A stretch of DNA of 61,568 nt, counting the filler, from Jimgerdemannia flammicorona (lineage: Eukaryota): the NCBI GenBank assembly GCA_003990765.1. It is 2 parts of 2 records of this genome, joined end to end, with 100 filler letters (N's around TTAATTAATTAA, not from the genome) between each part and the next. Parts side by side here need not be neighbours in the genome. Positions count along the whole stretch, not along the records: positions 30,846 to 61,568 come from RBNJ01000427.1; 1 more part is not named here. One strand, 5' to 3'. How positions within the stretch are numbered: the stretch's first letter is position 1; every line of letters begins with the position of its first letter. Below are positions 3,077 through 49,750 of the stretch, in pieces. Made by a program: the position numbers and the translations under genes. The notes beneath the pieces are model-generated. The model did no database searches. It was given only the letters and a program-made list of their open reading frames with translations, and had not been told where the DNA came from.

Positions 3077-4488
3077 AGCCTTCCACCAACATTGGAGAAG
3101 AATTGACACCTCAACAACAGCAACAACTAGTAGAACTTCTCAATAAATATCAAGATATCTTCACCACCAACTATGGCAACCTGCCATACAACCCATCATA
3201 TCACCACAGCATAAATACAGGAAGTGCAACACCCATCTGGCAGAAACTCTATAGAATACCCCATCACTTGAAAACATTCGAAAAGGAGCACATCCAAGAA
3301 CTCTTAGACAATGGAGTCATCCGACCCTCTACCAGCCCCTGGGCCAGCCCTATACTTATTGTGCCAAAGAAAGGAGGATAGAGACTCTGTGTGGATTATA
3401 GAAAACTCAACTTAGTCACTGAAAAGGATGCTTATCCTTTGCCCAGAATTGATGACCTTTTGGACCAGTTACAAGATGCCAGATATTTCAGCAGTATGGA
3501 CCTCTTCACGGAATTCCATGAGATCCCCATGGACCCCAAGGACATTCAAAAGACAGCCTTCCTTGCTCTAGGAAAATTGTTTGAATACCTCCAAATGCCC
3601 TTTGGACTTTGCAATGCACCACCCACCTTCCAGAGGATGATGAATTCAGTCTATGCCCCCTTGATCCACCACTGTCTGATTGTATACATAGATGATTCCA
3701 ACATCTATTCAGCAAATTTCAAAGAACACCTGCACTACCTAGAGGAATTATTCAAGCTCACCTGCAAGAATCACTTGAGACTGAATGCAAAGAAATGCTA
3801 CTTTGGAAAACAGAAACTCAAATTCCTGGGATTCATGGTCTTAAAAGAAGGAACTCATGCAGACCCAAAGATAACTGAGAAGATCAACAATTGGCCAGTA
3901 CCCAAGACTCCAAAGGAAACACTATCATTCTTGATGCTAGTATCCTACTACAGAAGGTTTATCAAAGATTTTGCCCAAATTGCTGCCCCAATCTGAATCC
4001 TTCTCAAGAAAGGAATGACATTCAAATGGACAGAATCACAGGAAAAAGCCTTCAGAGAACTCAAGAACCACATGACTACAGCACCAATCCTTGTGCGCCC
4101 CAATCTACAGAAGCCATTCATCTTGTATATAGATGCTTCTAAAGATGGCCTAGGAGCAGTTCTAGCCCAAGAAGGATCTGACCAACAGTACCACATGATA
4201 GCTTATGCAAGCAGAGCTACCAATCAGCAGCAGATGAACTATGGTAGCACCAAACTGGAATGCCTTGCAGTCATATGGGCAGTCACCCTGTTTAAGCATT
4301 ACCTCATCAGAAAAAGGTTCACCCTGATTACAGACCATGCAGTCCTCAAATGGCTATTCAACCGCAAGGAACCTGCTAGAATTCTAGCCTGCTGGATCCT
4401 TATCCTTCAGGATTACAAAATCACCATCATTCACAAAGCAGGGAAAGCCCACAACAATGTTGATGTACTTTTCCGCCAGCCCCAATGA
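3016..4488 (+). pseudogene. E1 reverse transcriptase + RNase H
   Basis: SPWASP, DYRKLN, YPLPRID, MPFGLCNAP, VYIDD; RNase H YIDAS, KLECLAV, TDH. In the -1 frame relative to the upstream ORF. Confidence 0.95.
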
Positions 4489-5564
4489 ATCAGAGGAAGG
4501 GTGTCCCAAGGAACCACACCCTAAAGGAAGCTCCTCAGACCATCAAAGCACAAGAAGATCTTATCTGAAAAGAACATCAGAAAGCCCACCAAGGACAGAC
4601 AAGCATAGAAGAGAGGATTTGAAAAGAATATCAACATTGGCCCCACCTCAGAACTCAAGTTCGGGACATCATCCAGAAATGTGACATCTGCCAGAAGTAC
4701 CAAGAAAAGAAGAACTATCAAGCCCCTCTGCAACCAATTCCCCCACCCACTCACATCTTTCAAAGATGGGGAGTAGATGTAATTGGACCTCTACCAGTTA
4801 CACCAAGAAGAAATAAATACATTCTTGTATTCGTAGAACATCTGACCAAGTGGCCTGAGGCTTTCCCAATAGAAATCGCTGATGCCTTAACTATTGTAGG
4901 CCTCCTCCATGGACTCACACTCAGATGTGGACCTCCAGAAGAACTCATCTCTGACCGAGGCACAGAATTCATCAACAACATAATCACAAGTTATGCCTGA
5001 ATTCACAAGATCCACCTCAAAAGGACCACATCATACCACCCCCAGACCAATGGCATTACAGAAAGAATGAACCAGACCATCAAGAAGGGACTTGCCCAAG
5101 TCAACCCTACTAATTGGGACCTCTGCTTACCTGAGATCCTGTCAGAAATTCAGAATACCCCTGCCACATCTACCAAACAAAAGCCATTCGAAATGATGTT
5201 TGCCAAGAAAACCAGAGCTGCTGACCATGAGAATCTTGGAGACCTCCTCAAGAAGGCAGAACAGTTACGAAATCAAGCCCAAGGACAGATTATCAAAGCC
5301 CAGGAAAGACACAAGAAGTACTATAACCAAAAACAGAAGGATCAGGAGATCAAGATTGGAGATCAAGTCCTAGTTTAGAGAAGCATGATTGAGACAAACT
5401 TTGCTGCCAAACTGGAACCAAAATGGGAAGGACCTTATTTTGTACACAACATCAGAGGAACCAGTATCTATTTAAGAAGCATGGATGGATGAACCCTGAG
5501 AACACCAGTACACATCAATCGCCTCAAGATATACCTCTTCTCACACCATGAATCAGAGAGTTGA
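4485..5564 (+). pseudogene. E1 integrase (separate ORF)
   Basis: HHCC (H..H..CDIC), WGVDVIGPLP, ISDRGTEF, YHPQTNGITERMN, KWEGPY; starts at an ATG overlapping the RNase H TGA. Confidence 0.92.
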
Positions 5565-9964: not shown

Positions 9965-10302
9965 GAATAAGGATCTTCCGGAGCATCCATATTTATTGGT
10001 CCAGTCCTGAAAAATTTGCTGATCCCATAACCTCTGGCAAGGGGTTGAAAAGTGGTGTTTATGGGCTGGCATCTTCTCTTTGTATTTTGGTGTGATGGTG
10101 AAGGGTCACTCCCTTCATATAGAGCAAGGGTCTGATTCTGATCTTGACCAATCAGTTGATGGTTAAAACTCCTCTGACTTTGAAAGTCTCACAGATGAGT
10201 AGTTGCCAGTGCTGTATCCCTTAGAGAATAGTCCAGACAGATAGCCTGCTGGTCATAGGACATGCTGTTATGATTCGTAGACTAGAACCTTATGGGTGGT
10301 CA

Positions 10303-11477
10303 TCACATTTTGCTTCTCTTGTATAGGTTCGTGGTACTTCTTGAGTCTGTTCCTATATACTATGGTAGGCAGTATGGTCCCTGAGATTTTTCTAAGCCAG
10401 AAGATAGTTCTCTTGATATCTTGCACATAGAAGGGTCCTTCCCATTTGGGCTCCAGTTTTCACAACCATGAGGCTTCTACCATATTTCAATACAGTAGAA
10501 CCTTTTCTCTGATGCGGATGGGTTCTAGGGTCTTGTGATTCTTTTCCGCATTCTTTCTTATCAGTGCTTGTGACTTGGTGATGTAATCTTCAGCCTTCTT
10601 CCTGATTTGGTGTAGTCTCTGGATTTCTGCATCAACCCATCTCCAAGTTATATCTAGATTCATAGCTAAGGTTCCATCAGAATCTTCTTCTCTGAAGAGC
10701 AGCTCTCTTGGGGTAAAGTGTGTGCTTTGTGACCATATGTCTCATAGGATAGAGAGGGCAGTTGGGAGATAGTTATCCCAATTCTCATATGTCTCTGAGA
10801 TCTTCACTAGGATGTTCTTGAGGGTGGTACACAGTGGTCTTGATGTGCTGGATCTTGTATTTCTGATATATTATCTCATAGAATTCATTGACAAATTCTG
10901 TTCTACAGTCTGTTGTGATTTGCTTTGATGTCTTGTAGTGGCAGATGATTTCTCAGTAGAGGAAGTTGGCTATAGAGAGAGCATTGGCTTTTTGTAATGC
11001 TCCTGCCTCTATCCATTTGGTGAAGAGGTCTACAATAACTATAATATAGCAGTTTCCTGATAGTGTTACTGATAGTGGTCCAATGATATCTATTGCAATG
11101 TGGTGGAAGGGGATAGGCTCAATTCTTGATGAACCAAGTACCTGGTCTTACTGATCTTGTTTCTGTTTTTGGTACTTGTCACACCCTTTGACAAATTGGC
11201 ACAGGTCTTCTTCCATCTTGGGCCACCATATGGTTCTTCTTGCCTTATCATATATATTGGTTCCTCCTAAGTGTCCTTGCTTGTGTACTTCCTTCATTAC
11301 TTGATACTTCTTGTGTTTGGATATTACTAGCTTTCCTTGTTTTCTGAATATAGTGTTGTCTAGTTCAAACTGTTTCCAAGTCCAGCTGATGATGTTGATT
11401 GTCCAAGGTTTGAGGTGGTTGGGTATCTTCCACTGCCCAAGGTAGCTGATTAATCCATAGTATAGCTCCTTATTCAT
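10303..11477 (-). pseudogene. E2 integrase (separate ORF)
   Basis: MNKELYY start, HKQGHLG..WWP..CDK, IAIDIIGPL, TTDCRTEF, KWEGPF; internal deletions. Confidence 0.9.
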
Positions 11478-11502
11478 ATTGAATAGTCTTGATGAGGGTG
11501 TT

Positions 11503-14500
11503 TCAGAGTGTCCTTGAGAGTGCATCGGCATTGGTGTTGGTCTTTTCTGAGCAGTGCAGTCATACTCTTGCAGCCTGTAGATCCATCTGGTATATATTCC
11601 TTTGGGGTTCAGAGTGTGGAATAGTCAGGCAAGAGCAGAGTGGTCTGTTTGAATAATGAAGTGTTTCCCAGCTAAGTAGTAGTGGAACTTGTCTACTGCC
11701 CAAACTACTACTAAGCATTCGAGCTTGCATGATTTGTAGTTCTGTTCTGCTCTGTAAGTACCTCGGCTTATATAGGAGATGACATATTCATATCCATCTT
11801 TCTTCTGAGCTAGGACTGCTCCAAGTCCTATAGCACTCATGTCTGTCTGCAGGATGAATTCTAGATTCCACTCTGATCTTCTGAGGATAGGTGCTTGGGT
11901 CAACCTGGTCTTGAGTTCATTGAAGGTTTCTTAGTACTCCTTGGTTTATTCGAATTTGGTCTCCTTCTTCAGTAGCTCGTAGATAGGTGCTGCAATATTG
12001 GAGTATCCTTTAATGAATCTTCTGTAGTAGCTGGCCAGTCTAAGGAAGGCATGGACTTCTGTAGTTGTTCTGGGTCTTGGGTAGGCTGCAATAGCCTTGA
12101 TCTTTATGGGGTCTGTGTAGATTCTGGTCTGGTTGATGAGGTGTCCTAGGTAGGTGATTTCTTGAGCTACAAACTTATATTTTTTGGGCTTGATATAGAG
12201 ACCATGCTCCTTGAGCTTCTTGAGGGCTAGCTGTATGTGATTGACATATTCCTGTATAGTATTGCTGAAGATGATCACATCATCAATATAGACAAAGAGC
12301 CATTTTCCAATCTCATTTCTGAAGACTCTGTTCATTATTTACTAAAAACTTGCTGGGGCATTGCATATTCCAAATGGCATTTGCAGGTAGATATAGGTAG
12401 CATCAGGTGTGATGAAGGCTGATTTCTCACTAGCATCTTGAGTGAGACCAATCTGATGGAAGTCTGAGAACAGATCTAAGATAGTATAGTATTTGGCTTC
12501 ACTTCTAAGGGTGGTAAGAATCTCTTGAATATTCAGCAAGGGCTGCCTATCCTTCTTGATGATGGCATTGAGCTTCCTATAATCAATGCAGAGTCTTGGT
12601 ACAAATTCTCCAAGTTTGCTTCCTTTCTTCAGGGCAAGGACAATGAGTGAAGCCCAGGGGCTGATAGCTTGCTTGATGATTCTGGCTTCTTCCATTTTCT
12701 TGAGTTCTGCTCACAGCCACTCTTTGTAGGTAGGTGGTATAGGTCTGGCTTTCTGGTAGATGGGCTTGGTATCACCAGTGTCAACTTCATAATAGTACTT
12801 GGGTTCTTGATTGTGGATATCCCTGAAGTCTGTAGCAAGTACTTCTTCATTCTGGTACAGGATCTTGAGAAGTTGTTCCTCCAGGGGAAAGTTTTCTCCA
12901 ATGGTATATGTGTGCTTGTTCTGGTCCTTATCTTTCTTGTGCTCAAGTTCAGTAATCTTGATAGCAGTATAGGCTCCTCTTCTAGTAGATCCAAAGCCTT
13001 GTTCTCCTCTCTTGGTCTTGATGAGTTTGATGGCTTTAATGATCTTGGGTTTCTTGATTTCATGGATCAGCATCTGGCCAATCCTGTCATACTTCTTGAC
13101 TTCAAAGGGGGTGGTGTGGTTGTAATTTCTGACTATGAGGAAGATCTCACCAGTGTAATTGGGGTCAATTACTCCTCCTTCAACTGAGATTTTGCTTTTG
13201 GCCAGACTGCTCCTGGTCTTGATAATTCTGGCATAGTTCTCTGGCAGCTTGACTCCAATTCCAATACCAAGTAGGGTGGTGGTCTGTGGTTTGAGGGTAG
13301 CATCTTAAATGCTGGCAAGGTCCATTCCTATGGCTCCTTCAGTCTTATATTCTGGGATCTTGGCTTTGGGGTAAAACTTCTTGATCTTGAGGGTGATGTC
13401 TGATTCTTGTTCCTCCTCATCATTACTGTCAGCTTGGAGCTCTGGGAGCTGGTCATCTTCTTTGGCTTTCCTTTTTGCTTTGGTGGCTTCTTGCTCATGT
13501 TTCTGTTGGTAGATTTTCCTGACTTCACTGATATAGGACCAGCAGTCATTCAGGTGTTCAGAGTAGTACATCCTAGTACCATGGGGGCATCTTCCTTGAG
13601 GGGCATAGCCATCAATGATCTTGTTATACCACTGGTCATCTGTGAGCTTGGGTGTCTTGTTCTTGTTCTTGTTCATCAAGTACATGAAGACCTCTGTGTC
13701 TTCTTCATCTCCATCCTCCATGTCTGGTAGAACTCCTTTGTGGACATTGATGGAGACTTGTACCTTTCTTCCTCTATAGTTGATCTGCATCTTCTGGGCA
13801 TTGAGATCAATGATGGCCTTGGTCTTGTGAAGCCATTGGTTGCCAATGAGGATGTCATAGTTGGTGGTGCTTGTAACAATCATATCTACTGGGATAGTAT
13901 CTCCTCCTATCTTGATGGAGACTTCTCAGATTTTGCCAAGGGGGGTAGCTTGTGTACTATCTGCTATAACATAGACCATCTTGGTGGACTCTTAAATGTC
14001 CCAGCCTAGGTGGTCAATTGCCTTCTTGCTCATGAGGCATCCTCCAGCACTGGTATCAATGATGGTATCAAAGATATAGTCTTCAATCTGACATAAGGTA
14101 TAGACTGATGTCTTGCACTAGTCTTTGGATTCTTCATCTGAGTTCTCAGATTCTTCCTGTGCATTGTGAGCTTCTACAATCTTGTACTCTTGATTCTTGG
14201 TGGTAATTGCAAGTCCTACTCTCAACTGCTGTCTGAAGGCAGGGACTTCAGCTAGCTGTCCAAAGATAGCATTGACTTTCTGTTCCTTGAGATCCTTGTA
14301 GATGTCATACTGATGGATCTTAGTCTTGCACAGCTTCTGTTCCTTCTTGCTTTTGCTTTCTCCTGAGACTGGGGTAGTGCCTTCAATAATTTGGCAGGCA
14401 GCTTCATCTAACTCCATATCTTGATCAATTTTCTCAGATTGGGTCTTACTTTGAATAGTGACAGCTGGGGTCTTCTTTAGTCTTCCAACTGGCTTGCTGT

Positions 14501-22788: not shown

Positions 22789-23034
22789 TTCATTTGTGGT
22801 AAGTCTTTGAGCTATTTTGGGATTGGTGGTTCTTGTTGATTACTGCTATTGCGGTTCCTTGATCCTTCTTTTATATTCTTCAGGATGCTTGTACTGTGGT
22901 CACAATGACTCACAGTTGGTCATCATTGCTCATCTTGTATGCTGTATGATCTTTTTGTATTCTGATCTAGTGACTTGCAAGGAAAGGCCATCTCCTGTGC
23001 TGATGTCATCATTCTGGGATCACTGTTACATTAT

Positions 23035-31647: not shown

Positions 31648-34600
31648 CTCACAGAAGCAGTAAGTGAAAAGTCAGCCTTTATAACTCCAGATAGAACATA
31701 TGTCTATCTGCAAATACCATTTGGAATATACAATACATCAGCCAGTTTCCAGCAAATGATGAACAAAATCTTCCACTATGATATGAGAAAATGGATGATG
31801 GTTTATGTTGATGATATAATCATCTACAGCTATACACTAGAAGAACTCTGCAGCACATCTAGCAGATAATAGAAAGACTGAGAAAGCATAGCCTATACAT
31901 CAAGCCTAAGAAGTGCAAGTTTGCAGAAATTGAGATCTCCTATCTTGATTATATTATCAACTAAGATAGAATACACACTGACCCCCTCAAGATACAAGCA
32001 GTAGCAGTATACCCAAGACCCACTATGGTTACTGAAGCTCAGGCCTTCATGGGACTCACTTCATATTACTGAAGATTTATTAGAGAATTTTTTAATATTA
32101 CAGGTCCAATCTATGAACTCAACAAGAAGGATACCAAGCTCCAATGAACTGGCAGGCAGCAACAAGTATTTGATGAGCTCTAGGTCAGACTGACCTAAGT
32201 ACCCATCCTTAGAAGAGCAGACTGGACCCAAGAATTCATCCTTCAGATGATGCAAGTGCACAAGAACTAGAAGTAGTCCTAGTTCAAAAGAAAGACAAAG
32301 TAGAGTATATCATTGTATATCTCAGCTGTAGAACCTGAGAAGCTGAAAAAGAATATGAATTATACAAGTTGAAGTACCTCACAGTTATCTGGACTATAGA
32401 AAAGTTCTACTACTATCTGGCCAGAAAATACTTTACTATTCAAACAAACCACTCAGCTCTTACCTGGCTACTGACCACTGGACAACTCAAGGGAATCTAT
32501 GTCAGATAGATCATGAAGTTGCAAGCCTATGATGTAACCATCATACAGTGCTCAGGAAGAACCAATGCCAATACAGATGCCCTCTCATGGACACTCTGAA
32601 GGACCCCCAACCAACAAACCAATAATGAATAAAGAGCTCTACTACAGAATTATCATATATCTGGGATAGTGAAAGATGCCCCAACATCTGGAAGAATGGA
32701 CACAAATGATTATCAACAGAATATAGAAACAATTCGAAACTGATGGAGAAATACTGAAGAAAGGAAAACTACTAGTCATACTAGAACACAAGAAGGAGTA
32801 AGCAATAAAATCAGTATATGAACTCAGCTATCTAGGAGGAACCAATATATATAATAAAGCAAAAAGAACAATATAGTGGTCAGGAATGGATGAAGATATC
32901 AGACAATTTGTCAAGACCTGTGACAAATACCAAAAATAGAAACAAGACTAATGAAATTAAGCCCCAGGATCAGTACACATAGAACCAGTGCTATTTGCCT
33001 ATGTTGCAATAGATGTAATTGGCTCTCTACCCTTGACTCTGACTGGCAACCAATACATCATTGTTATTGTAGACCTCTTCATAAAATGGATAGAGGCAGG
33101 ACCCCTCAAAGAAGCCAATGTACAGTCAATTACTGATTTCTTTCATGAAGAAATCATCTGCTGATTCAAGACCCCAATACAAGTAACCACAGACAGAGGG
33201 ACAGAATTCATGAACCAGTTCTTCGAGGTTCTCTACAAGAAGTATAAGATCCAGCATATTTGGACCACAGCCTATCACCCTCAAGGAAATGGATAAGTAG
33301 AAAGGACTAACAAGACCCTCAAAAATGTTATCACAAAGATCTGCAATAACTACAAAAACTGAGATCACTATCTGCCAATAGCATTATCTGCTCTCTGGGA
33401 TATCTGATTATAAAGCACCCACTTTATCTCTTGAGAAATGCAATTTGGAGAAGAAAGTTCTCAAGGAACTCTATTGTCCAATAGAGATGCTGTATAGAAA
33501 CACATGGATATGGAGATATGGAAACTACACCAAATCAAGAAGAAGGCTGAGGATTACATAAACAAGATACAGACACTACAGCAGAATAATACAGAAAATA
33601 TTCACAAGCCCCTGGAGATTATCAAGATAGGAGACAAAGTCCTAGTATATTGGAACATGGTAGAAGCTTTATGGTCATGAAAACTGGAGCCTAAGTGGGA
33701 AGGACCTTAACTTGTGCAAGATATAAAAGGGATCACCTTTTGGTTATGAAAACTCTCAGGCACAATCATTCCTACTACTATTCACCAAAACTGCCTCAAG
33801 AAGTATCATGACCAGTCAAAAAAGTAATGCTACTGCCCTCAAGATTACTAGTACTGCCCAGTAAGCCATAGAAAGACAGTAGTGTTCCACTGAGCCACCA
33901 ATGATAGAGAAATCCTTTGACAGTATCCAGAGTATAGTGCAAATATACCTATTACAAATCTCACATTTCAAGGCCTATCAGAACTAAACTAAGTTCCTGG
34001 AATACTTCAAGTTGGGACAGCTACTAAATTCAAAACTGAAGATGGAAAAAGAAGACTAGATCAAGAAATGTTAGCTCTCCTATACTCAAATTATAATTGC
34101 AAAAAGAGTGTACAAATTATTCAAGGATAATGAGTCAGCCTTAACCTATTTCCAAGAAGTAACTCCAGGAGACTTTGGATATATCAAGAGATAATATTAA
34201 AAGAACATAATGACACAAATTGCACAGTATAAGGAAATACAAATTATAGAAGCCTGGAAATTTGAGTGAATAGGATACTCCAGAGATGAATCACCTATTC
34301 AGGAGGAAGATATGATGGCTGATCCAAATTAGTAATATGAAATAGAGAAATTAGACATTTGATTATAATATTTGAATCTAATTTCCAAAATAGCTTAACC
34401 TTATAAATAGCAGTCATATTCTGCAAAGTGCAGAAACTTTACCATTTGCAAAGATTTAAGAGATGTTAGAATATTTGTAATTAGTACAATCCTAGCAAAT
34501 GTTAAAAGATTCAATACTTGTAAAATGACTCATAACTTAGCCACCTTATAAGCTAGTAAAACATATATAAATAATCTAGCATCTTAGAGTGAATAAACCT

Positions 34601-35495: not shown

Positions 35496-35860
35496 TACAT
35501 AACTCATTTACTAGATATATCTATATTTATAATATATATATATATAAATACAGTATGCTAATATACATATATATGCAAATATATATATATATATAAATAT
35601 ATACATATATATAAATACATATATGCAAACATACAAATATGTATATCAATAGATCAGTTTTCAACAGCTCATAGTACTGATGATACTTCAAGTCAAACAT
35701 CCTTGATAGTTCTATACTTTTCATATAATCCTCATTCTAAAATCTGGAAACATTGTACTAAAACTGGAGATGATGTTATTTATAGATATAAAATTAAAAA
35801 AAGAAGATATATTTATGATATAACTGAGTCTTTTATTTGATACATATATAATATTATTTG

Positions 35861-37185
35861 TATCAATCTCTTATACTATATCGCCAGAAGTTCAAAATAC
35901 TTATGGGTTTAACTTTAAATATATATTAACATATAAAAGACAAATACTTCAACAAAATTAAAAAGAACATTGAAACTAATAAAATTGATATCTAAGCTAT
36001 AGTGGGTATATTTATCTAATTGCCCAATCATTTCTGTAATAATAACTCCATTTAATCAAAAATATTTGACCATATTCTTTAGTAGAATTTTGAAATTAAC
36101 TCATTTGCTAGATTGTGTATATAGATCAGTCATTCACAACTATTAAGAGTGATCAATTACATAGTATTCTTGGCCTCCTGAAGTATGATTTATATCTATC
36201 AAGTACTGATACTATTTGTAAAAATATCCTGAAGGTCTATAGGAAGAACTATAATAATCTTCACCAGATACTTTAGATAAAATAAATAAATAAGACCAAT
36301 ACTATGACCATTGTAAGCTAAATTATATATATATATATATAGAGCTCACTAATTTAATTAAACAGAATTCAGCAGACAGAATTTCAACTATAATTGATAT
36401 ATTGATATCCTTTAATATAATTTTATTTCTAGATATTACCAGTATTAAATTGATCTTGATTGATAACTTAAATCTCTTACCCTTGACTTCACCAAACTTG
36501 TTAGTCCTTATTTTGGAAAAACATTAGAGATGTTTTTATTAGTTGTATTCTGGAGCTTAGAATTACAACTAAGATAAAAAGAGAGACTTACTATCTAGCA
36601 TTTTGAGCAACTGAATATCATGATATTGTTTCTATCAATCTCTTATACTATATAGCTAGAAGTTCAAAATACTTGGTGGTTCAACTTCAAACATATATCA
36701 ATATATAAAAGACAAATACTCCAACAAAATAAAAAAGAATACAAAAATAAATAAAATCAATATTCAAGCTATAGTACATTTATCTAATTGCCCTACAATT
36801 TCTGTAACAATAACCCTATTTAATTAAAAATATTTAACCATATTCTTTAGCAAAATTTCCAAATTGACTTATTTGCTGAATTGTGTATATAGACTAGCTA
36901 TTTACAACTATTGAGAGTGATCAATTGCATAGTATCTTTGATCTCCTCAAGTATGATTTATATCTACCAAGTACTGATAATCTTTATAAAGATATCCTGA
37001 AGGCCTATAGGAAGAAATATGATAATCTTCACCAGATACTTCAGATAAAATAAATAAATAAGAGTAATACTATGGCCATTGTAAGCTGAATTATACATAT
37101 ATATATATAAAGAGCTTACTAATTTAATCTCACATTTAATAAATAGAATTTAGTAGATAGAATTTCATTTAAAATTGATATATAG
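35861..37185. repeat. ~770-bp tandem duplication; second copy continues at 49755-49946
   Basis: 35861-36595 matches 36633-37185 + 49755-49946; the first copy shows the empty E4 insertion site. Confidence 0.88.
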
Positions 37186-39550
37186 TGTGATGTACACAAT
37201 TGACAATAGAGTACCGGTGACTGCTAAGATCAGACAACATAATGGCATGACAATCAAATAGACAGCCTGACCCATTAGGTGATCATCCCAAAAGAAGACA
37301 AGATGATCCAAGCCAAAATGAAGACCACATTATTTAAGGAACCATACTCTGCCTCAAGGATCAGCACCAAAGAACCAAGTACCCACCACACAATGCCTCC
37401 TATTCGCCGAACCAATCAGACCTCCTGCCGCTCTACCCCTTTGCCTGGCCCAAAGACCCTGATCTTTGAAGCTATCAAGAAGACCATCTGGCGCCCAGAT
37501 ACTTCCAAACACTTGAACTTCTATACTGAGGACGTTGGACACTTCATCAACTACCAGTATATAATGACCCAACAGCTCAAAGACACTACCGAACGAATGA
37601 CCCTCTGGCATGACTATGAAATCGGACACCACCTTCACAATGAGACTCAAGAAGGTGACCAGGAAGACCTCATTGCCGAAATGATAACCACCAGCCAGCT
37701 AATCAAGAGAGCCCTCTGTGTCCATCAAATCTTCTGCCATATTCCCTGGGCTATAGCACACTTACAAGGAGTGACAGCTGGCAGCCTCTCCCACCTTTCA
37801 ACTGAAGATGCTGACTGGATAGAATCTGAAGTAGCCAATGCTATTGGCAGCAACTGCATTGCCATAGGAAGCCAACAAACTGAACCTACTCAGCCAGGTT
37901 TCCACACCACCCCACTCTAAGACAACCATCAAGGTCACCTAATGAGTCTTATGGAGATATTTGAAGGACCGCCCATCACTATAGAGGCACCCATTGGAGC
38001 TACCCCAACCACCCACCACCCTGTCAGCCATAATTCACAGCTCATCATTTGGGAACCAAATTAAGAGGAGGCCCAAGAACTCCAAGACCCTGCCCCTGAA
38101 GAAACCCCCTCTGACACTGAAACTGATGAGCCTTCAGAAGAAGAAGAGGAGCAACAGAGAGTCTACCAGTCCTCTGTCCACATTCAAGCTGTTCAAGGGT
38201 TGGAGAATGTTGTTGAAGATGACTGGCCACTTTGCTACCCCCTCACCTCTTGGCCAGCACTTCCCCCCTTTGAGGAGAGATATGATGAAGAAGAAATCAC
38301 AACCCAGCAAGATTTGCCCACCACAGATGAAGGGTACTATTTCCTCTAGAGTACCATCCATCAGCTATGAGAACCCAGCTTTTGTCAGCAAGTCCGTTTC
38401 CAGCATTGCTACCCAGTACCACCATTTTCAGCATTTTGTCAGCAGGTCCAAATCCAGCATTGCCACCCTCCACAACCACTTCTGGCAACAATCATCATAT
38501 CATGTCAGCTCATCTGAATCCAGCATTGCTACCCAGTACCACCATTTTCAGCATTTTGTCAGCTCATCCGAATCCAGCGTTGCTATCCCCTATAACCCAA
38601 TCTGTAGTAAACAATGGCCTGCATCTCGCATTGTGCAAGCCAATAGCATAGCGAAGTTCACTACAATGTAGTATACCTTAGCCTTAGTCACGCCCCCTCC
38701 TCCATAGCTAGCAAACTTGTATAAATAACCCATATTCTTAGAGTGAATAAACCTCAGTCAGTTTGTGTTTAAAAGTAAAAGGAATTACAGAGAAACCACT
38801 GCCTCCAAGAGACCGGATAAATTCTGAGAATAAGATAACTAGAGCAACGATCGCTCGAGGTTTGAGTAAAAGAATTTTCTCTTGCCATGGAAAGAAAACA
38901 TTACCCGACCGCCGCCATTCGACTGCTATTTGAGACCCAAGACCCAGCCAAGGATTCAAGACCAGACTGCCATTCGGACTGCTATTCGGACTGCCATTCG
39001 AGACCCGAGACTCAGCCAAGGATTCAAGACCAGACCACCATTCAGACCACCATTCGGACCACACATTCAGACTGCCATTCGAGATTCAAGACCCAGAAAC
39101 CCAAGGATACCCAGACAAAGGATACTAGACTGCCAAAGACCAACCTGCTGCCAAAGACCTGAATGACCACCAGGAACCTAACAAGTTAAGATGGACAAGC
39201 AAGCCATCAACCTCTGTTTTTCCGAGCTACTGTGTCACGAACTGTTCAAAGTCAAGCCTGTCATCGCCGCCAAGTTATTCGCTGCCCTTTTCTACTAGAT
39301 ATTGAGCCATTGAACAATCAAACGACCTCATCCACTAAACAATTGAGCTGCCATCATTGAACAACCAAACATCCCCACCATCGATGTTCTGAGCCCTCTG
39401 ATGAACAATTGAATTCCTGCTATCAATTATTGCACATTTCGAATGACCTGTCACGTGACCAGCGACCTGTGAACGTCACCAATGCCTTCAGTTATACATC
39501 GCGTGCTTCACCAGTGGCACACATTAAGCCGTGCAGTCGAAGTTCATTAT
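37186..39550 (+). repeat. E4 5' LTR (last 17 bp missing)
   Basis: Near-identical to 47372-49733; TATAAA 38720, AATAAA 38746. Confidence 0.95.
37393..38349 (+). pseudogene. Accessory ORF in E4 5' LTR (318 aa consensus)
   Basis: ATG 37393 to TAG 38349; two TAA stops are CAA in the 3' LTR copy. Confidence 0.85.
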
Positions 39551-42500
39551 TGACCATTTGGCTCAAGAACCCAGCTATCTACAGTGGAGAACTTAGCAGG
39601 ACCAAGTCAGCAACCAAACCAGGGGCAGCAACAGCCCTCCTCAGCAGAAAAGAAAGCCCACACCCTTGTCAGAACAGTAGCCAGGACCCTATTCAACACC
39701 AGTAGCCAGAAAACCGAATCAGAAGAAAGAAGTGACCCAGATTACAGTTTGACTTCAAGAGAAAGGAGATGACTCAGAGGACAACCAGAACTGCCCCTTC
39801 AGATCCAAGACTTAGACCAAGAAGAAGAAGAGGATATCCCTGAGGAGTATCAGACCCTTATCCATAGGAAGAACTCAGACAGAAGCAACTACATAACTAC
39901 TGTTATCACTCGAGTCACTCCACTAGACCAAGTATACTTTGAAACATCAGAAGGAGAAGAGGACTATCATCCATATCAACCAGAACAAGATGACGATTGG
40001 GGATCAGACCATCAAAGGGATGAATTCAACCTATACTATTATCCTGACAGCAACACTGACCCACAACAAGGCGAACAAGACCTCACTACTTCACAACAGC
40101 AAGGGGCAGACGAACTCACTATCAGTTATATCAGTCCACTCCCACCATCAGTTGCTCAAACTTCAGTACCCTGGTCACTCACACCTCACCACTATCACCA
40201 GTCTATCAGAAGATCTCCACCACTACCCAGGACTTCAACCCCAGCATTAATTAGAAGAGCCAGATTACCCTCACCCTCACCAAGACACCCTCTGCCAGCA
40301 CCACTAGTTCATCAAGTACTAGTACCACCACCTTTCCCATCACCCCGAGGATCTGCCAGATCTCCTACCCCTGAACAATACTCAGATAGTGAAGATGAGC
40401 CAGACATGAGCTACCTTCAGAAGTTCCATGGTGCAGACAATGAAGATATCGAGGAATTCTTTGGAGAAATTGAAGTTCAAGCAGCTGCCAAACAATGGGA
40501 TGCTGCAAGAAAACTCAGAATCATGGAGTCACTCCTGAGAGGACCAGCCCTACAGAGGTATAATCAAGCCAAGCAAGCCGGAGGAGGAATCCATACAGAG
40601 GAACTGAATGATGGCCTTCAACCTGATAGGAACCATGTAGCAAGGTACATGATTCACAAAGCCTGGCTCCATGCCCAGTTCAATGGATTCGAGCGTCAAC
40701 AAGAAGCACAGGAGGCTTTGACCTATATGAGCCAAGCTGCCAATGAAACTCCCAAGAGTTTCTACCATCGGATTCAAGCTCAAATGATCAAGGTGAACCT
40801 TCAACCAGCAGTCCAACTGGCCCTAGCCTCAACTACCTTCCTCAATGGCTTATACCCAGAACTCTGAAGGCAAGTTATCAGGATGGGATATCGAAACATT
40901 GAACAGCAAGTTGCTGGAGCACAAGGATGTTGGGAAGCAGATTATAGACCAGTACAACAAGTACAAGGCTATCCTGAGCCAATCCAAGCTGAAACCCCAA
41001 GGACCTGAGGAACAACTATGGAGTAAGAGAATGCCTTCCTCAGAGCCCAGATAGCCAACTATGAGAACAGACCAGCATCCACAAATCCGACTCCATTCAG
41101 GCAATCACAGCAGCAGCCACCATCAAGAGTTCAAGAAGACCCTATGACAATGCTCACCAAGCAAATGAAGGACCTGGCCATCACGGTTACCCAGCTGAAC
41201 AACCAAGGTAGAAGACAACAAGACTACCATCATGATAACAGACCAGACTACTGGCAACAAGACAACAGAGGTCCTGCCCCCACACTACCAGCTGCAACTA
41301 CAGCCTCATCAGTGACTGGTTCCTATGGTCCCACCTGCTTCAGCTGTGGAAATCAAGGCCACATCCAGAGGAATTGTCCAAGGAACCAATCCACCCAGTC
41401 CAATGACAGAAATGTCAACCTCTTTCAGGTAGACAAAGAGACTCAGGAGATGGAAGAAGAAGCAGCCTGGCTCCATGGTCAAGAAGATGACATCTATCTG
41501 TACTTCGAGGTCTTTCCATCCAAGGTGACATGGGAAGCTGCCCCCGCAGAGACCAGAGGGCGAGGAAGACCACGAAGGAACCCCCCACCTCAACTGCCAG
41601 TAACTATATCCACAGGCAAGCATCCGTGGCATGGCTATTCTTCTTCAGACACTCCACAAGAACAGGGGAAGTGAGTTAGAAGAGATACTCCTGAACCAGA
41701 AGCCAGACCATCTAGGACAACCCCCAGCTCTACCCTGCAGACCTTGAAGAAGATGAGCATATGAGCATAAAATCTTCAGCTGATGAAATGCCCATCAGGA
41801 ATGAGAGACTACACCCCAAGGGACCAAGACACCGAAGAAGCAGCAAGCCCCATGCAGCAGCCTCACTTTGGGAACATATCCGCCTACAGAATGCTGGTCT
41901 TACAGTTGAGCAAGTCCTCAAGAATGCACCAGAGGTCAGGCGAAAATTCCTGAAAGAAGCCAAGGAAGATACCAAGAGACTTCCAGTCCAAGGACCACAC
42001 ACTCAAGAACCTAGCACTATCCACACAGTCCATGAGAGCCTGCGACACAAAAATCAATCTACAAGACTCGCTGATGGAAAAGTGCATGGTGAAAATGCCA
42101 GAATTCTCGTCGATACTGGAGCAGCAGTATGCATCATCACCCAAAGAATGTTGGAGCGAATTGGATGGGGAATAGATGAAGGAACCAAAGCAAGAGTTAT
42201 CATAGCTGATGGATCAGCTTCCACACCCCTTGGACTTGTCAGAGACATCCCCATTCAAGTTGGAAAGGCCCGCCTCAATGTACCCAAAGCCGTCGTGACC
42301 CCCACAACCTCCTATGACCTAATCCTGGGAACTGACTGGTTAAGCCGAGTGGGAGCCAATATAGATATCAAGAAACAACTCCTGGTCTTCTCCACTCATG
42401 GACAGAAGCACAAGGTGCCTATTGACTCGAAAGGATTATCTAAAAAGACGAATCAAGTCTTAGAAACAGAATGGCAAGGACATGGCAACACCCCCACTAC

Positions 42501-44406
42501 TACTGAGGATGAAAGCAAGGCCAATTTCCTACAAGAACTAGGAAGTGATTTCGATGCCCCAAGGGACCAAGAAAGCGAACAAGAAGACTCTTTCATTGGA
42601 GTTATTGGTGTTGAAGGCCTGGAAGAAAGCATTGATAGAGCCATTAATGTAAGGGCAGCACTTGAGTTTGCAGGACCTTCTGCTCAACCACCACCACCAC
42701 TGGTAGAAAATCAGATCATGCGAGCCTTTCATCGAGGCATATACGAACACTTCATTAGCTTCCACTCACCAAGAGATGATTGCAGCAATTGCCGAATCCT
42801 GGATCTCAAGAAGGTTCCAATGCCAGAAATTGATAACAAGGACAAATTGAAGCAAGCACCATCCTACAGCCAAATACAACCTCCAACCCCGAAGACCTTC
42901 AAGAAGACCTATAAGGAAGGACAGAAGATCCTCGCCCGCCAAACATTTGAGTCCCTTACCATCGAAGGAGAAAGCAACAGCTCTTACACTATCACTCAGG
43001 CCCTCCAGATCATACAGCCCACCTATGACAAGTATCGGAAGAGATTCCCTACCAGTAGGGAGGTCAAACAGTGAAATGAAGACTTTGTCAAGAAGAGACA
43101 TTGTGATTGTGGAAAAACCTTTATCTGCTACTGGTGTGAACATCGAGATATTCACCTCAGCGAAGATGTCTACAAGAGCCGAGTCAAGAGAAAGGACCCC
43201 ACCCTGCAAGAACCTCGAATTCGCTGGGCCTGTCAGAAGTGCAAAGAAATCAACCATAAAGGAGATTGCAAGTTCAAGAGCAAGACCTCTATCTGAGACC
43301 TACTATTGGAAGTTCTTGCCATCATTCGCTGGTACTGCCGCCCTCATCAAGGAAAAGAAGGTATCAATCTTGCCTTCATCGTTATGGAAGCTCTGGACCC
43401 TCTAGGAAAGACTGGATTCAATTACACAAGAAACTCAAAGATAGGAGCTCACTGGCCTTTCTTCAAACTGGAGTACATGGACTTCTTACCTACAATGGCA
43501 ACAGCTGAGGCGCCATTTCTCAAAGCTCAACCAATTATCCAGGTCAAGCTGCTTTCTCCCTGGGCACAGCCACCTCTTGCACAAACAGAAGGATCAGTTG
43601 GTTATGACCTCTGCCTCCCCTACCAAGCAAGAATCCGCCCCAGAAGTACCAGGACTTTTGACCTACAGATCACACTCGCTATACTACCTGGGCATTATGG
43701 ACAATTGGCCTCAAGATCCTCATTGGCAACCAAAGGAGTCACAGTAGAAGGAGGAGTCATTGATCAGGACTACCGAGGTCCCTTGAAGGTCATTATCTGC
43801 AATTCTAGTAGAGCCAGCCAATTCTTCAGTCCTATGGAAGCCATCTGCCAAATCCTGTTTATCAAGACATTACAGCCGACCATCCAAGAGGTAGACCAAC
43901 TAGAAGATACTAACAGAGGACAAGGAGGCTTTGGAAGCACCAATAGAAATCTACGAACACCACCTATCGAGGTTCATTTGGCAACAGTTGCTCAATTCTG
44001 ACAAATGAGACCCCACATCTGCCACCCAATCTGAGCAAGAGAAGACATCCTCCTGCAGCCCTACCAGCAAAAAGGCCTAGATGTGCACCTACCAGTAGAA
44101 GCAGACAACTTGATATTTGCACCATCACTGGAGCTTCAAAAGGAATACCACATCCTCCTGGCTGAAGAACGAATTCATGACCAGATGTCACCAATCCACA
44201 TCCCTATCAGAAACTTGGGCTTCGAAGTGATAACTATCCCCAAGGGAACAACACTGGGATATTTCGAACCATTGATAGACACCTACAAGGAAGAAGTCTT
44301 TGAATTCTTGGGAAATGGCAAGCCCTCTCTGGTGAGACTGATGGTACCAGGGAGGAAGACTCAGCAAATTCAGCAATCAAAGCCATCGACATCGAGACAA
44401 CTCTAA
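39551..44406 (+). pseudogene. E4 gag-PR-uncharacterised domains-dUTPase polyprotein (5' end deleted)
   Basis: Gag with CFSCGNQGHIQRNC knuckle, protease LVDTGAAVC/DLILGTDW, dUTPase; mostly CGA>TGA-type stops and one frame change near 41700. Confidence 0.92.
43540..43941 (+). CDS. E4 dUTPase domain (uninterrupted)
   Basis: VGYDL, ASRSSLA, GGVIDQDYRGPL, AICQI, RGQGGFGST. Confidence 0.94.
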
Positions 44407-45842
44407 TCAAGGACCAGTAACAACAAATACAGGAGTTGATAGAGGAGTACAAAGATATATTTACCACCACATATGATAACTTCCCACCATATCAATATGG
44501 AGAACACCCTATACATACTGGAGATGCAAGACCAATCTGACAATGACCCTACCGAACACCACATCATCTGATTGAATTCGAACAATAACACATAGACGAA
44601 ATGCTATAAAATGGAGTCATCAGACCATCATCAAGCCCCTGGGCCTCACCAGCAATCATAGTACCAAAGAAAGGAGGATGGAGATTAGTCGTGGATTTCA
44701 GAAAACTCAACAAAGTCACCACAGAAGATGCCTACCCACTGCCAAGAATTGATGACCTCATCAATGCCCTTGGAAAAGCCAAATACATGACCACTACCGA
44801 CCAGTTCCAAGGATTCCAAGTAATACCCATTGCCAAAGAAGATATCTGCAAGACGGCCTTCATCACCAGACGAGGACAGTATGAATACCTATGAATGCCC
44901 TTCAGACTCTGCAATGCACCCGCCTCATTCCAATGAATGATAAACTATGTCTACCGGGACCTCATTGGAAGAAATGTACTAGTGTACATAGATGATGTCA
45001 TCATCTACTCTGAGACATTCAAGCAGCATTTGCAAGATCTCCATGAAGTATTTGATACCATTCGAAATTCAGGACTCAGACTCAATGCCAAGAAGTGCTT
45101 CTTTGGAAAACATCAAGTCGAATATCTGGGATATGTTGTCTCAGCTCAAGGAACACATGCCGACCCCCGCAAGGTAGAGAAAGTCAAGAACTACCCAACC
45201 CTGACCTCAGCAAGGGAGACCCTATTCTTCCTTATGCTGGCATCCTACTATTGATGATTCATCCCAAGGTTTTTGGATAAGGCAGCACCTCTCCGAGATA
45301 TCTCCAAGAAGGACCAATCATTCTACTGGAAAAAGGAACAACAAAAGTCATTCGACCTACTCAAGAAGGCCCTTACTGAAGCCCCTGTCCTGGTGTGACC
45401 AGACTTTGGCAAACCATTCATCCTGGCAACTGATGTCTCAGCCTTAGGACTTGGATCAATTCTGTCTCAGCAAGATGACCAAAAGAGGGAGCATGTTATC
45501 GAAATGCTAGCAAGGCCACGAATGAAACACAAGTGAACTATGGAGCCACTAAGTTGGAATGCCTAGCAGTAGTTTGGGCTGTAGACCACTTCCAACACTA
45601 TCTCTTAGGAAAGAGATTCACCCTCATCACTGACCATCAAGCTACAATGGTTGTTCAATAAGCCGGAGCCCTCAGGAATCTTTGCTAGATGGATCATGTC
45701 CCTGCAAGAATATCAGTTCACTATTGTCTACAAGAAAGGTGCTAAGAATTCCAATGTTGATACTCTGTTAAGAATCCTGCGAAACCAACAAGAAGGGAAG
45801 GAGCCCCCACAAGAGAAGGCTGCTTCCTGCCCACCCAAATGA
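44310..45842 (+). pseudogene. E4 reverse transcriptase + RNase H
   Basis: SPWASP, DFRKLN, YPLPRID, VYIDD, ATDVS, TDH; in the -1 frame relative to the upstream ORF. Confidence 0.95.
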
Positions 45843-47046
45843 ACCAAGAATTGCACCTCGCCCTCACCTGGAGCCTGCACCATAGAAGCTTCAAAAAAGG
45901 AATTCAACCAGTCCACAAGTTGTTTATCCAAAGGAATTTCAAGAAATTCCAAGAAGGCGATGGCAAACTTTGGAGAGTAGAGGGAGAGCAGTACACCCGA
46001 GTTCTAAGAGAAGAAGAAATATTGAAGATCCTGACAACAAATCATGACCAAAATGCACACCGAGGAATTGGTGCCACAATTGCAAGAATCAAGAAGCGAT
46101 ACTGGTGGCCCAAGATGAGAAAACAAATTTCAACACACATTCAACAATGTGATACCTGCCAAAGATACCGACAAAAGCCTACTGACAGAGCACCATTAAT
46201 ACTGATCGCAGCACCAGCTGGAGCCTTTCAAAAACTAGGAATAGACATTATTGGACCCCTACCAGTAACTGGATGAGGAAGATGCTACATCCTCACTATC
46301 GAAGACCACCTGACAAAATAGCCTGAAGCCTTTGCCATCGAGACTGCCGATGCCCAGACAATTATTGGGATCCTGTATGATGAAATTTTCAGCTGTCATG
46401 GTGTGCCCAAGGAAATCATTACAGACCAAGGTTGAGAATTTATCAACCAAGCCATGAAGACCTTTGCGAGCAACTTCAAGATCAAGCTATGACCAACAAC
46501 AGCCTACTACCCACAGGCAAATGGACTCACTGAACAAATGAACCAGACCATCAAGCGAGGTCTCAGTAGAACTGGAGATCAACTAAACTGGGATATCTAT
46601 CTACCGGCAATTCTGTTCATCCGTACCTCTAAGGCAACTGCTACCCCTTCTATTTGGTGTATGGCCGAGAAGCACAAGATCCTACTGAACCAGTCCAGCT
46701 AGATCTGTCAAAATGAGTCACAGAAGAGATCACCCGGTTACACAATATATGCCAGCAAGCACGAGGATTTATTGCCAAGGCACAAGAACGCCAAAAGAGA
46801 TACTATGACCGCAAAGCCGACCTCGAACCCCTGCTCATTGGACAAAAGGTTCTGGTGTACCGTACCATCATAGAAGGAAATTGGAGTGCCAAGCTTGAAC
46901 CAAAATGGGAAGGCCCCTATCTCATACACCAAGTATTCTTGAACCACACTTATCAACTCAAGACCTTGGATGGAGTTATACTCAAGACCAAGATACATCG
47001 CAACCGCATAAGAATCTACTACTCAAGAGAAGCAAAACGCATTTGA
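45839..47046 (+). pseudogene. E4 integrase (separate ORF)
   Basis: HDQNAHRG..WWP..CDTC, GIDIIGPLP, ITDQG, PQANGLTE, KWEGPY; ATG overlaps the RNase H TGA. Confidence 0.93.
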
Positions 47047-47371
47047 ACAATCCTGTTCACTCTGTCTGTGTCATCTCCACTGGAGATATAATGGACGTTT
47101 CACTCAGAACTCAAGAAAGCCAACAACGTTGAAACCAGACTTAAGCCCATCCATGTGACAGACATTGTTACTAATAAATTGCCTCGGATTACAAGTAATA
47201 CTATTTCCGATTGGTTCAAACCCCTAGCTGTGACTATGGGAGCCCTCGCCCTAGACAAGGATGGCCAGTCCTCACAAATGTACCAGCATTCCGCTTGTCC
47301 CTGGAGTTAAGACCACTCAACTCTGTATAACCCTCACCACCGAGGACGGCTCTAATTTTGCAAGGGGCAGA

Positions 47372-49750
47372 TGTGATGTACACAATTGACAATAGAGTAC
47401 CGGTGACTGCTAAGATCAGACGACATAATGGCATGACAATCAAATAGACAGCCTGACCCATTAGGTGATCATCCCAAAAGAAGACAAGATGATCCGAGCC
47501 AAAATGAAGACCACGTTATTTAAGGAACCATACTCCACCTCAAGGATCAGCACCAAAGAACCAAGTACCCACCACACAATACCTCCCATTCGCCGAACCA
47601 ATCAGACCTCCCGCTGCTCTACCCCTTTGCCTGGCCCAAAGACCCTGATCTTTGAAGCTATCAAGAAGGCCATCTGGCGCCCAGATACTTCCGAACACTT
47701 GAACTTCTACACTGAGAACCTTGGACACTTTATCAACTACCAGTATATAATGACCCAACAGCTCAAAGACACTACCAAATGAATGACCCTCTGGCATGAC
47801 TATGAAATCGGACACTGCCTTCACAATGAGACTCAAGAAGGCGACCAGGAAGACCTCATTGCCGAAATGTTAACCACCAGCCGGCTAATCAAGAGAGCCC
47901 TCTGTGTCCATCAAATCTTCTGCCATATTCCCTGGGCTATAGCACACTTGCAAGGAGTGATAGCTGGTAGCCTCTCCCACCTTTCAACTAAAGATGCTGA
48001 CTGGATAGAATCTGAAGTAGCCAATGCTATTGGCAGCAACTACATCGCTATAGGAAGCCAACAAACCAAACCTACTCAGCCAGGTTTCCACACCACCCCA
48101 CTCCAAGACAACCATCAAGGTCACCTAATGAGTCTTATGGAGATATTTGAAGGACCACCCATCACTATAGAGGCACCCATTGGAGCTACCCCAACCACCC
48201 ACCACCCTGTCAGCCACAATTCACACCTCATCATTTGGGAACCGAATCAAGAGGAGGCCCAAGAACTCCAAGACCCTGCCTCTGAAGAAACCCCCTCTGA
48301 TACTGAAACTGACGAGCCTTCAGAAGAAGAAGAGGAGCAACAGAGAGTCTACCAGTCCTCTGTCCGCATTCAAGCTATTCAAGGGTTGGAGAATGTTGTT
48401 GAAGATGACTGGCCACTTTTCTACCCCCTCACCTCTTGGCCGGCACGTCCCCCCTTTGAGGAGAGATATGATGAAGAAGAAATCACAACTCAGCAAGATT
48501 TGCCTGCTACGGACGAAGGGTACTATTTCCTCTAGAGTACCACCCATCAGCCATGAGAACCTAGCTTTTGTCAGCAAGTCCATTTCCAGCATTGCTACCC
48601 AGTACCACCATTTTCAGCATTTTGTCAGCAGGTCCAAATCCAGCATTGCCACCCTCCACAACTGCTTCTGGCAACAATCATCATATCATGTCAGCTCATC
48701 CGAATCCAGCATTGCTACCCAGTACCACCATTTTCAGCATTTTGTCAGCTCATCTGAATCCAGCATTGCTATCCCCTATAACCCAATCCATAGTAAACAA
48801 TGGCCTGCACCTCACATTGTGCAAGCCAATAGTATAGCGAAGTTTGCCACAACATAGTATACCTTAGCCTTAGTTGCGCCCCCTCCCCCATAGCTAGCAA
48901 ACTTGTATAAATAACCCATATTCTTAGAGTGAATAAACCTCAGTCAGTTTGTGTTTAAAAGTAAAAGGGATTACAGAGAAACCACTGCCTCCAAGAGCAG
49001 ATAAATTCTGAGAACAAGATAACTAGAGCAACGATTGCTCGAGGTTTGAGTTAAAGAATTTTCTCTTACTATGGAAAGAAAACATTACCTGACCACCACC
49101 ATTCGACCGCCATTCGAGACCCGAGACCCAGCCAAGGATTCAAGACCAGACCAACATTTGGACCACCATTCAGACCGCCATTCAAGACCCAAGACCCAGC
49201 CAAGGATTCAAGACCAGACCGCCATTCGGACTGCCATTCGGACCACGCATTCAGACTGCCATTCGAGATTCAAGACCCAGAAACCCAAGGATATCCAGCC
49301 AAAGGATACTAGACTGCCAAAGACTGACCCACTGCCAAAGACCCGAACGACCGCCAGGAACCTAACAAGTTAAGATGGATGAGCAAGCCATCAACCTCCA
49401 TTTTTCTGAGCTACTGCACCATGAACTGTTCAAAGTCAAGCCCATCATCACCACCAAGTTATTCGCCGCCCTTTTCCACTGGATATTGAGCCATTGAACA
49501 ATCAAACGACCTCATCCACTAAACAATTGAGCCACCATCATTGAACAACCGAACATCCCCACCATCGACATCCTGAGCCCTCTGATGAACAATCGAATTC
49601 CCACTATCAATTATCGCACGTTTCGAATGACATGTCATGTGACCATCGCCCGCGAACGTCACCAACGCCTTCAGTTATACATCGCGCGCTTCACCAGTGG
49701 CACACATTAAGCCGTGCAGTCGAAGTTCATTATACATAACTGACACCACA
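47372..49750 (+). repeat. E4 3' LTR (2379 bp)
   Basis: TGTGATG...CACCACA, duplicate of the 5' LTR. Confidence 0.96.
47579..48535 (+). pseudogene. Accessory ORF in E4 3' LTR
   Basis: Same ORF; ATG>ATA and one CGA>TGA, otherwise open (47783-48535). Confidence 0.85.

Follow-up and report, generated by a model that had tools for sequence, protein, structure and literature searches.

How does a Ty3/gypsy retrotransposon supply its integrase when the pol reading frame stops before integrase begins? According to the textbook, integrase enters the particle covalently within Gag-Pol and is then freed by the protease. The question is raised by a 61,568-nt stretch of the genome of Jimgerdemannia flammicorona (GenBank assembly GCA_003990765.1), referred to below as the window. 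The window is eukaryotic, has a G+C content of 40% and two short runs of N, and consists nearly throughout of nested retroelement debris. It contains four Ty3/gypsy copies with the Pfam domain order gag, protease (PR), dUTPase, reverse transcriptase (RT), RNase H (RH) and integrase (IN): E1, E3 and E4 on the plus strand and E2 on the minus strand. Judging from these sequences and those of their relatives, integrase in the large clade of dUTPase-bearing and related Ty3/gypsy elements that includes the four copies is very probably a separate downstream cistron with its own AUG. The RH-IN junctions in the window are as follows.

4485..4488, plus strand: E1 junction ATGA; ATG at 4485-4487, TGA of the RH frame at 4486-4488, integrase in frame −1
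45839..45842, plus strand: E4 junction ATGA; ATG at 45839-45841, TGA of the RH frame at 45840-45842, integrase in frame −1
11475..11505, minus strand: E2 junction; TGA at 11505-11503, ATG-free spacer of 25 nt, ATG at 11477-11475, integrase in frame +1
32597..32627, plus strand: E3 junction; TGA at 32597-32599, ATG-free spacer of 25 nt, ATG at 32625-32627, integrase in frame +1

The two ATGA overlaps and the two 25-nt gaps had been given in the initial annotation, and their coordinates were exact on re-reading. The pattern described there, an RH stop soon after the N-x-D-x-L motif followed by an out-of-frame integrase restart at MNQ or MNK, is seen in 4/4 copies. The RH frames stop 6 to 25 codons beyond the motif (NVDVL in E1, NVDTL in E4, NADAL in E2 and NTDAL in E3), the last residues before the stop being FRQPQ in E1 and SCPPK in E4. 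Integrase starts with MNQRKG in E1, MNQELH in E4, MNKELYYGL in E2 and MNKELYYRI in E3. In E2 a private frameshift closely upstream of the junction places most of RH in the integrase frame.

It had also been argued that recurrence in four divergent copies speaks against decay. The pattern does recur in all four, and the decay reading is contradicted by relatives outside the window. The copies themselves, however, amount to two pairs of related families (nucleotide identity of 65% for E1/E4 and 67% for E2/E3), and all of them are dead, with numerous further stops and frameshifts in the pol of each. Since they are decayed and form only two family pairs, the window alone cannot tell inherited design from inherited defect. 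The pattern goes beyond chance because relatives outside the window share the split.

Close relatives of E4 were considered at the DNA level. Short soil-metagenome contigs from four runs were aligned to the RT-RH-IN region of E4; the runs listed for this region were all DNA, with no RNA run among them. Where the RH and integrase frames of E4 break, the other copies of its family have small indels relative to E4, so that its private breaks are missing from them; they also have sense codons at two of the E4 stop positions. No indel is listed between 45642 and 46616, that is, from the RH end to the integrase zinc finger. One contig is gap-free over 45772-46112, and a second covers 45366-45995 with gaps only at the upstream breaks. 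The four letters of the junction do not differ among the family variants shown, a listing that stands apart from 175 less-supported substitutions. Thus the junction alignment gave no continuous RH-integrase frame, the arrangement that would have spoken against a split, and no listed indel alters the −1 relation. That the other copies have neither the private breaks nor a listed junction indel speaks against decay as the source of this relation.

Within 44400-47370 the differences between E4 and the family contigs are mostly T>C and A>G, hence E4 gained C>T and G>A changes. Its decay signature is deamination-like, resembling that of methylation or repeat-induced point mutation. A joint omitting 46140-46213, present in one contig at depth 2.3, was disregarded as unsupported.

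More distant relatives were sought at the protein level. The query for an exhaustive phmmer search was formed by the first 274 codons of the E4 integrase with X at the stops. Long multi-domain fused Pols match this query at only 30–36% identity, whereas the most similar matches (37–49% identity) are open reading frames (ORFs) of 390–450 aa in which the first residue pairs with that of the query. When the 145-aa E4 junction ORF was compared with longer proteins by a word-based method, no homologue appeared; the exhaustive search succeeded. In the alignment of 20 stand-alone ORFs with E4 the first Met is invariant, followed by the pattern M-[D/N/E]-x-x-x-Y-x-x-h-x-x-Y-L, at a mean column identity of 33%. 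A profile search restricted to proteins of similar length yielded 1398 clusters at E<=1e-30, the best 120 of which are all 394–571 aa long. Among these best 120, the start M[DNE]xxx[YFH] is present in 99 of the 115 new clusters, and several others have near variants of it. Where a source is named, it is Paraglomus brasilianum or P. occultum; the remainder are metagenomic. Clusters labelled Rotifera and Mucoromycota resemble the split-clade integrases and are treated as leads only. A scan of IMG/VR gave six distant loci (27–34% identity), all outside the split clade; they were left out of the analysis.

Two side observations concern these proteins. In metagenome records the integrases P0016, P0130 and others are called "transposase InsO family protein", and one is called "YihD (DUF1040)", a bacterial-style misannotation. 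In the subclade of P0093, P0094 and L021 the integrase ORFs are 529–576 aa long, and their C-terminus carries a long extension that is charged and coiled-coil-like, with many E, K, R and Q residues.

The scan of metagenome contigs gave 80 loci (L numbers), of which 51 contain both the RH end and integrase. In the loci nearest to the stand-alone integrases the RH ORF stops shortly past RH (in L003, past a 315-aa extension), and an intact integrase ORF follows from the homologous ATG. L001 is intact and has the architecture of the window copies: an uninterrupted 1577-aa CCHC-PR-dUTPase-RT-RH ORF, ATGA, and a 418-aa integrase ORF. In L019, also intact, ORFs of 895 and 859 aa, the former with Retrotrans_gag, Ty3_capsid and CCHC matches, are followed by TAATG and a 426-aa integrase. 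Two further intact loci are L010, with ORFs of at least 972 and 688 aa and then a 423-aa integrase, and L003, with an ORF of at least 1479 aa and then a 418-aa integrase. In 11 of the 51 loci M occupies position 1 of the integrase profile behind a stopped RH ORF; fused loci carry other residues at this position, which corresponds to the start of the integrase N-terminal extension in fused relatives. The integrases of these elements have the H2C2 and DDE motifs and a GPY/F-type C-terminus.

The 315-aa run-on of the RT-RH ORF in L003 (3494-4438) has no Pfam match; in its relative L004 the corresponding position is taken up by 521 nt that look non-coding. Downstream of integrase, ORFs of 160–280 aa without Pfam match are found in L001 (5951-6652), L019 (7404-8258 and 8586-9179) and L003 (5842-6333). 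These may be further cistrons that need their own means of expression.

For a quick IQ-TREE tree 80 integrases were taken: those of 51 loci and of the four window copies, together with 15 stand-alone and 10 fused database proteins. The own-AUG state changes three times on this tree compared with a mean of 26 when shuffled, and 0/500 shuffles gave a value as low. All of E1–E4 fall within an 11-row clade that has the own-AUG state throughout (Shimodaira–Hasegawa-like approximate likelihood ratio support of 99); E2 and E3 are sisters, and E1 and E4 group with P0016. Elsewhere on the tree, 11 loci with a broken RH-IN link and no conserved ATG are near-identical sisters of fused elements. These are ordinary decay, and such look-alikes are distinguishable from the split clade. 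The initial annotation held integrase to be its own cistron, starting at its own ATG, and the pattern not to be a product of decay; this is borne out by intact relatives, by more than 100 ORFs sharing the start, and by the clade-wide state. The RH/integrase split is an inherited trait that intact elements share and that has persisted across deep divergence.

The junction itself varies freely in spacing and frame while the AUG stays. The frame of integrase relative to RH was recorded at 17 junctions.

Frame −1: E1, E4, L001, L002, L003, L013, L017, L019, L021
Frame 0: L005, L010, L012, L035, L052
Frame +1: E2, E3, L018

The distance from the stop to the ATG ranges from −11 to +278 nt. The two codons overlap or lie no more than about 20 nt apart in E1, E4, L001, L002, L018, L019, L035 and L052; the distance equals 25 nt in E2 and E3 and 30 nt in L010. 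The spacers are A-rich and G-poor. The spacers no longer than 110 nt, about 478 nt in all, contain one ATG; composition-matched shuffles have 5.1 (P=0.029) and random windows from the same sources 9.0 (P=0.0016). Taken together, the features of the junctions point to ribosomes that would scan to the first AUG past the RH stop and start there. An alternative genetic code for the in-frame stops was ruled out, as the integrase ORFs end in the same TAA, TAG and TGA codons as the RH ORFs.

Retroelements use −1 frameshifting, +1 frameshifting and readthrough at gag-pol, and programmed recoding of these kinds might produce an RT-RH-IN fusion here, the ATG being incidental. Such recoding agrees with the single in-frame stop in L005, L012, L035, L052 and L075 (the last later classed as decay) and with the overlap of the RH and IN ORFs by 27 codons in E4 and about 40 codons in L002. 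The overlap, however, is only 1–4 nt in L019, E1 and L001, and is absent from seven loci (L003, L004, L009, L013, L017, L021 and L034), where a single frameshift cannot join the ORFs because they do not overlap. L010 has two in-frame stops between RH and integrase, and the arrangement suited to readthrough, the same frame with a single stop, occurs in 0/4 window copies. At 15/17 junctions, including all four in the window, a search out to 150 nt from the stop gave no in-frame slippery heptamer; at the other two the heptamers are at sites where the frames either fail to overlap or are one and the same. Three frame relations occur in one clade with the AUG fixed; fused relatives lack Met at the position where 99 of the 115 stand-alone ORFs start exactly. 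Because all frames, wide spacing, missing ORF overlap and ATG-poor short spacers occur together, independent initiation is favoured, and recoding is unlikely. A short intron spliced out over the RH stop would also join RH and integrase in frame; Ogre elements have an intron of this kind between protease and RT. The spacers of 62–278 nt that some relatives have match fungal introns in length, but an intron does not fit into the compact junctions (ATGA, TAATG, 2 nt, 9–30 nt), no GT was seen after the RH stop on inspection of the spacers listed, and the conserved Met at the first residue of integrase homology would be left unexplained. We consider this explanation very improbable. Slightly lower still we place coincident decay, either by ordinary disabling mutations or through a defect passed on by a dead master copy. 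The many stops and frameshifts of the window copies are in its favour, and the 11 broken-link loci demonstrate that decay does yield look-alikes without a conserved AUG in near-identical sisters of fused elements. It conflicts with the same architecture in intact elements, with the start common to more than 100 intact stand-alone ORFs, with the clade-wide own-AUG state, and with the E4-family contigs, which have no private breaks and no listed junction indel.

All explanations other than reinitiation and a subgenomic RNA are improbable even when taken together; both of these routes had been named in the initial annotation. In the proposed mechanism pol ends past RNase H, and integrase would be translated by independent initiation at the conserved AUG, which opens the sequence M-[D/N/E]-x-x-x-[Y/F/H]; given such initiation, integrase would be made as a free protein and not cut from Gag-Pol. 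Of the routes to this AUG we prefer termination-coupled reinitiation on the full-length RNA, or rescanning of that RNA over a short distance after termination. We give this way of delivering ribosomes about an even chance; the amount of integrase would then be a fraction of that of Pol. The compact window junctions (ATGA and 25-nt ATG-free spacers) fit reinitiation better than do the wider ones of some relatives, and ATGA and TAATG overlaps recur in separate members. The alternative is a subgenomic mRNA for integrase. Splicing could form it by joining a leader donor to an acceptor close before the AUG, or an internal promoter within the RNase H region could start it; gypsy env, foamy-virus pol and Oikopleura Tor env are precedents. 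Such an mRNA would suit all spacings and frames equally, including the spacers of 62–278 nt that are outside the known viral stop-restart range, and the extra ORFs 3' of integrase in L001, L019 and L003; ATG-poor, A-rich spacers would suit a short 5' leader, and neither a shared fold nor a motif of the kind described below for viral reinitiation turned up. However, ATGs are present in the RH coding sequence 60–90 nt upstream of the integrase AUG, so that the 5' end or splice joint of such an mRNA must fall no more than about 50 nt from the AUG. Moreover, inspection alone revealed no conserved pyrimidine-tract/AG acceptor across the junctions listed, and a subgenomic mRNA does not require the stop/start overlaps that recur in E1, E4, L001 and L019, taken as unrelated. 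We regard a subgenomic origin as possible but doubtful.

Several observations weigh against a separate cistron reached by reinitiation. One member of the split clade, P0088, is a fused protein that retains the M at an internal position. The 15 stand-alone proteins on the tree were picked for being stand-alone, which is a selection bias, while the loci were chosen by the scan. The single in-frame stops listed above are compatible with readthrough, and the depletion of ATG in the spacers is only moderately significant. In six intact relatives (L003, L005, L012, L013, L017 and L021) the spacers reach 62–278 nt. The UGGGA core is the motif of caliciviruses and other termination upstream ribosome-binding sites (TURBS) that is complementary to 18S rRNA; TGGGA, the only core sought, was found in 0/17 junctions within the last 120 nt before the stop. 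Upstream sequences have no shared stable fold in minimum free energy (MFE) folding, which is blind to pseudoknots, and z is below −2 in only 2/12 loci, which are a sister pair. In TURBS-type systems the stop and start lie within 20 nt of each other and efficiency falls beyond about 30 nt (PMC10275272).

By every structural test but a continuous Pol the four copies are Ty3/gypsy elements. The PR-RT-RH-IN order is present by Pfam in E4 and E1 and in the intact L001, L019 and L010, and LTRs (long terminal repeats) and a CCHC gag are found. The usual location of integrase within a continuous Pol is found neither in the window nor in the intact relatives. LTR bounds were set for E4 and E2 of the four copies; the E4 LTRs are 93.7% identical to each other, and those of E2, at about 8542-9955 and about 21702-23031, are 87–88% identical. 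The features of the copies are listed below.

37186..39550, plus strand: E4 5' LTR, from LTR comparison
39773..41671, plus strand: E4 gag region, with a CCHC knuckle (zf-CCHC) in ORF 41027-41671
41716-43071, plus strand: E4 protease, Pfam
43297-43998, plus strand: E4 dUTPase, Pfam
44634..45842, plus strand: E4 RT-RNase H, from which the terminus NVDTL...SCPPK and stop is reached through two private frame breaks and several stops
45839..47046, plus strand: E4 integrase cistron, decayed, its first 274 codons holding 4 stops and its frame being broken near 46640; the H2C2 zinc finger is residues 58–111
47372..49733, plus strand: E4 3' LTR, from LTR comparison
140-919, plus strand: E1 protease, Pfam
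2546-3073, plus strand: E1 dUTPase remnant, Pfam
3382-3993, plus strand: E1 RT, Pfam
3997-4488, plus strand: E1 RNase H, Pfam
4485..5564, plus strand: E1 integrase cistron, a single frame with several stops
10268..11477, minus strand: E2 integrase cistron, decayed, with a frame break past the YHPQ motif
32625..33827, plus strand: E3 integrase cistron, a single frame with about 12 stops

The dUTPase domain lies between protease and RT in E4 (within 41716-43998), E2 (12714-13304, minus strand), E1 (2546-3073) and L001 (ORF residues 931–1058). In the available parts of two reports (PMC2864245, PMC5408684) a dUTPase at this position is given only for gypsy elements of basidiomycetes and bdelloid rotifers.

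Other features of the window were noted near E2 and E4. Another element is nested in E2 at 15600-21700; it has a 607-aa ORF without Pfam match (16112-17932), then an ORF with an RVT_1 reverse transcriptase (19433-20383), and it is flanked by direct repeats of 211 nt, 95% identical, at 8346-8556 and 15604-15814. Directly upstream of the E4 5' LTR there is a tandem duplication of about 570 nt with 84% identity (35844-36402 and 36615-37183). A 207-nt piece, 36401-36607, recurs past the E4 3' LTR at 49751-49961.

We tentatively propose, at somewhat less than an even chance, that an ancient, species-rich branch of Ty3/gypsy has permanently uncoupled integrase from the Gag-Pol polyprotein. In this proposal stop-restart on the genomic RNA would produce free integrase from its own AUG, and the enzyme would join the particle or the cDNA in trans via its conserved N-terminal extension. 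Named members of the branch come only from Paraglomus (Glomeromycota); the branch is abundant in soil metagenomes and possibly occurs in Mucoromycota and bdelloid rotifers too. If the proposal is true, integrase would be a diffusible trans-acting factor, which bears on its stoichiometry, on the mobilisation of non-autonomous copies and on the assembly of the pre-integration complex. A clade that keeps a separate integrase cistron over deep divergence shows that linkage to Gag-Pol is dispensable. With hundreds of intact ORFs, a fixed start codon and a freely drifting junction, it is a natural system for studying how free integrase is dosed and recruited, and a candidate example, within pol, of stop-restart or subgenomic expression in a eukaryote. 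Pipelines built to annotate a single pol ORF would call such elements broken or their integrases "InsO-family transposases".

The elements are closest to canonical Ty3/gypsy (Metaviridae), including the dUTPase-bearing elements of basidiomycetes and bdelloid rotifers, with which they share LTRs, a CCHC gag, the order PR-(dUTPase)-RT-RH-IN and an H2C2/DDE integrase. The canonical integrase is freed by protease, whereas here pol stops past RNase H and integrase begins at a conserved AUG of its own. For the dUTPase-bearing gypsy elements of fungi and rotifers, the available parts of the same two reports (PMC2864245, PMC5408684) describe pol as one gene and mention no split.

Victoriviruses express the capsid protein (CP) and the RNA-dependent RNA polymerase (RdRp) by stop-restart, in contrast to the CP-RdRp frameshift fusion of totiviruses (PMC6631646). 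Together with the hypovirus coupling below, this contrast is the nearest functional parallel: in one lineage of these fungal viruses a bicistronic RNA yields the downstream enzyme separately, often by a start at AUGA, in a sister lineage it is fused, and the free enzyme must be packaged separately. An AUGA/UAAUG overlap of the victorivirus type is present in E1, E4, L001 and L019. Unlike these elements, victoriviruses are dsRNA viruses, and they have an upstream pseudoknot near the overlap; none is detectable here by MFE folding, which cannot see pseudoknots. In CHV1, a hypovirus of a fungus, ORF A and ORF B are linked by coupled termination-reinitiation at UAAUG (PMC2699510). CHV1 and the TURBS of caliciviruses and influenza B resemble the elements in having an overlapping or abutting stop and start after a long ORF, their downstream product being made at a fraction of the upstream one (PMC2699510, PMC10275272). 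They differ in the motif, lacking from all 17 junctions here, and in spacing, many relatives having spacers far beyond 20–30 nt. The non-LTR retrotransposon SART1 couples ORF1 and ORF2 at UAAUG (PMC10275272); there too a retroelement makes its enzyme by stop-restart on its full-length RNA, but between a structural and a whole enzymatic ORF, whereas in the present elements pol itself is interrupted, RNase H lying on one side and integrase on the other.

Foamy-virus Pol and gypsy/errantivirus Env are made from spliced subgenomic RNAs. They are alike in that a retroelement protein is expressed apart from Gag-Pol and recruited in trans, and differ in that it is the whole Pol or Env and not integrase alone. 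The env of errantiviruses is a separate ORF (PMC6431247). In DIRS-like elements a tyrosine recombinase is encoded in a separate or overlapping ORF (PMC5006619; bioRxiv 10.64898/2026.05.21.726589). As in our elements, the enzyme that inserts DNA is encoded apart from RT-RH, but it is a tyrosine recombinase in elements of other termini and lineage, whereas here it is a DDE integrase of Ty3/gypsy. Full-text searches of a literature that leaves out most subscription journals, Repbase Reports and supplements turned up no account of a stand-alone integrase cistron in Ty3/gypsy. Compared with all these systems, the clade-wide, selected uncoupling of integrase from Pol is what is new.

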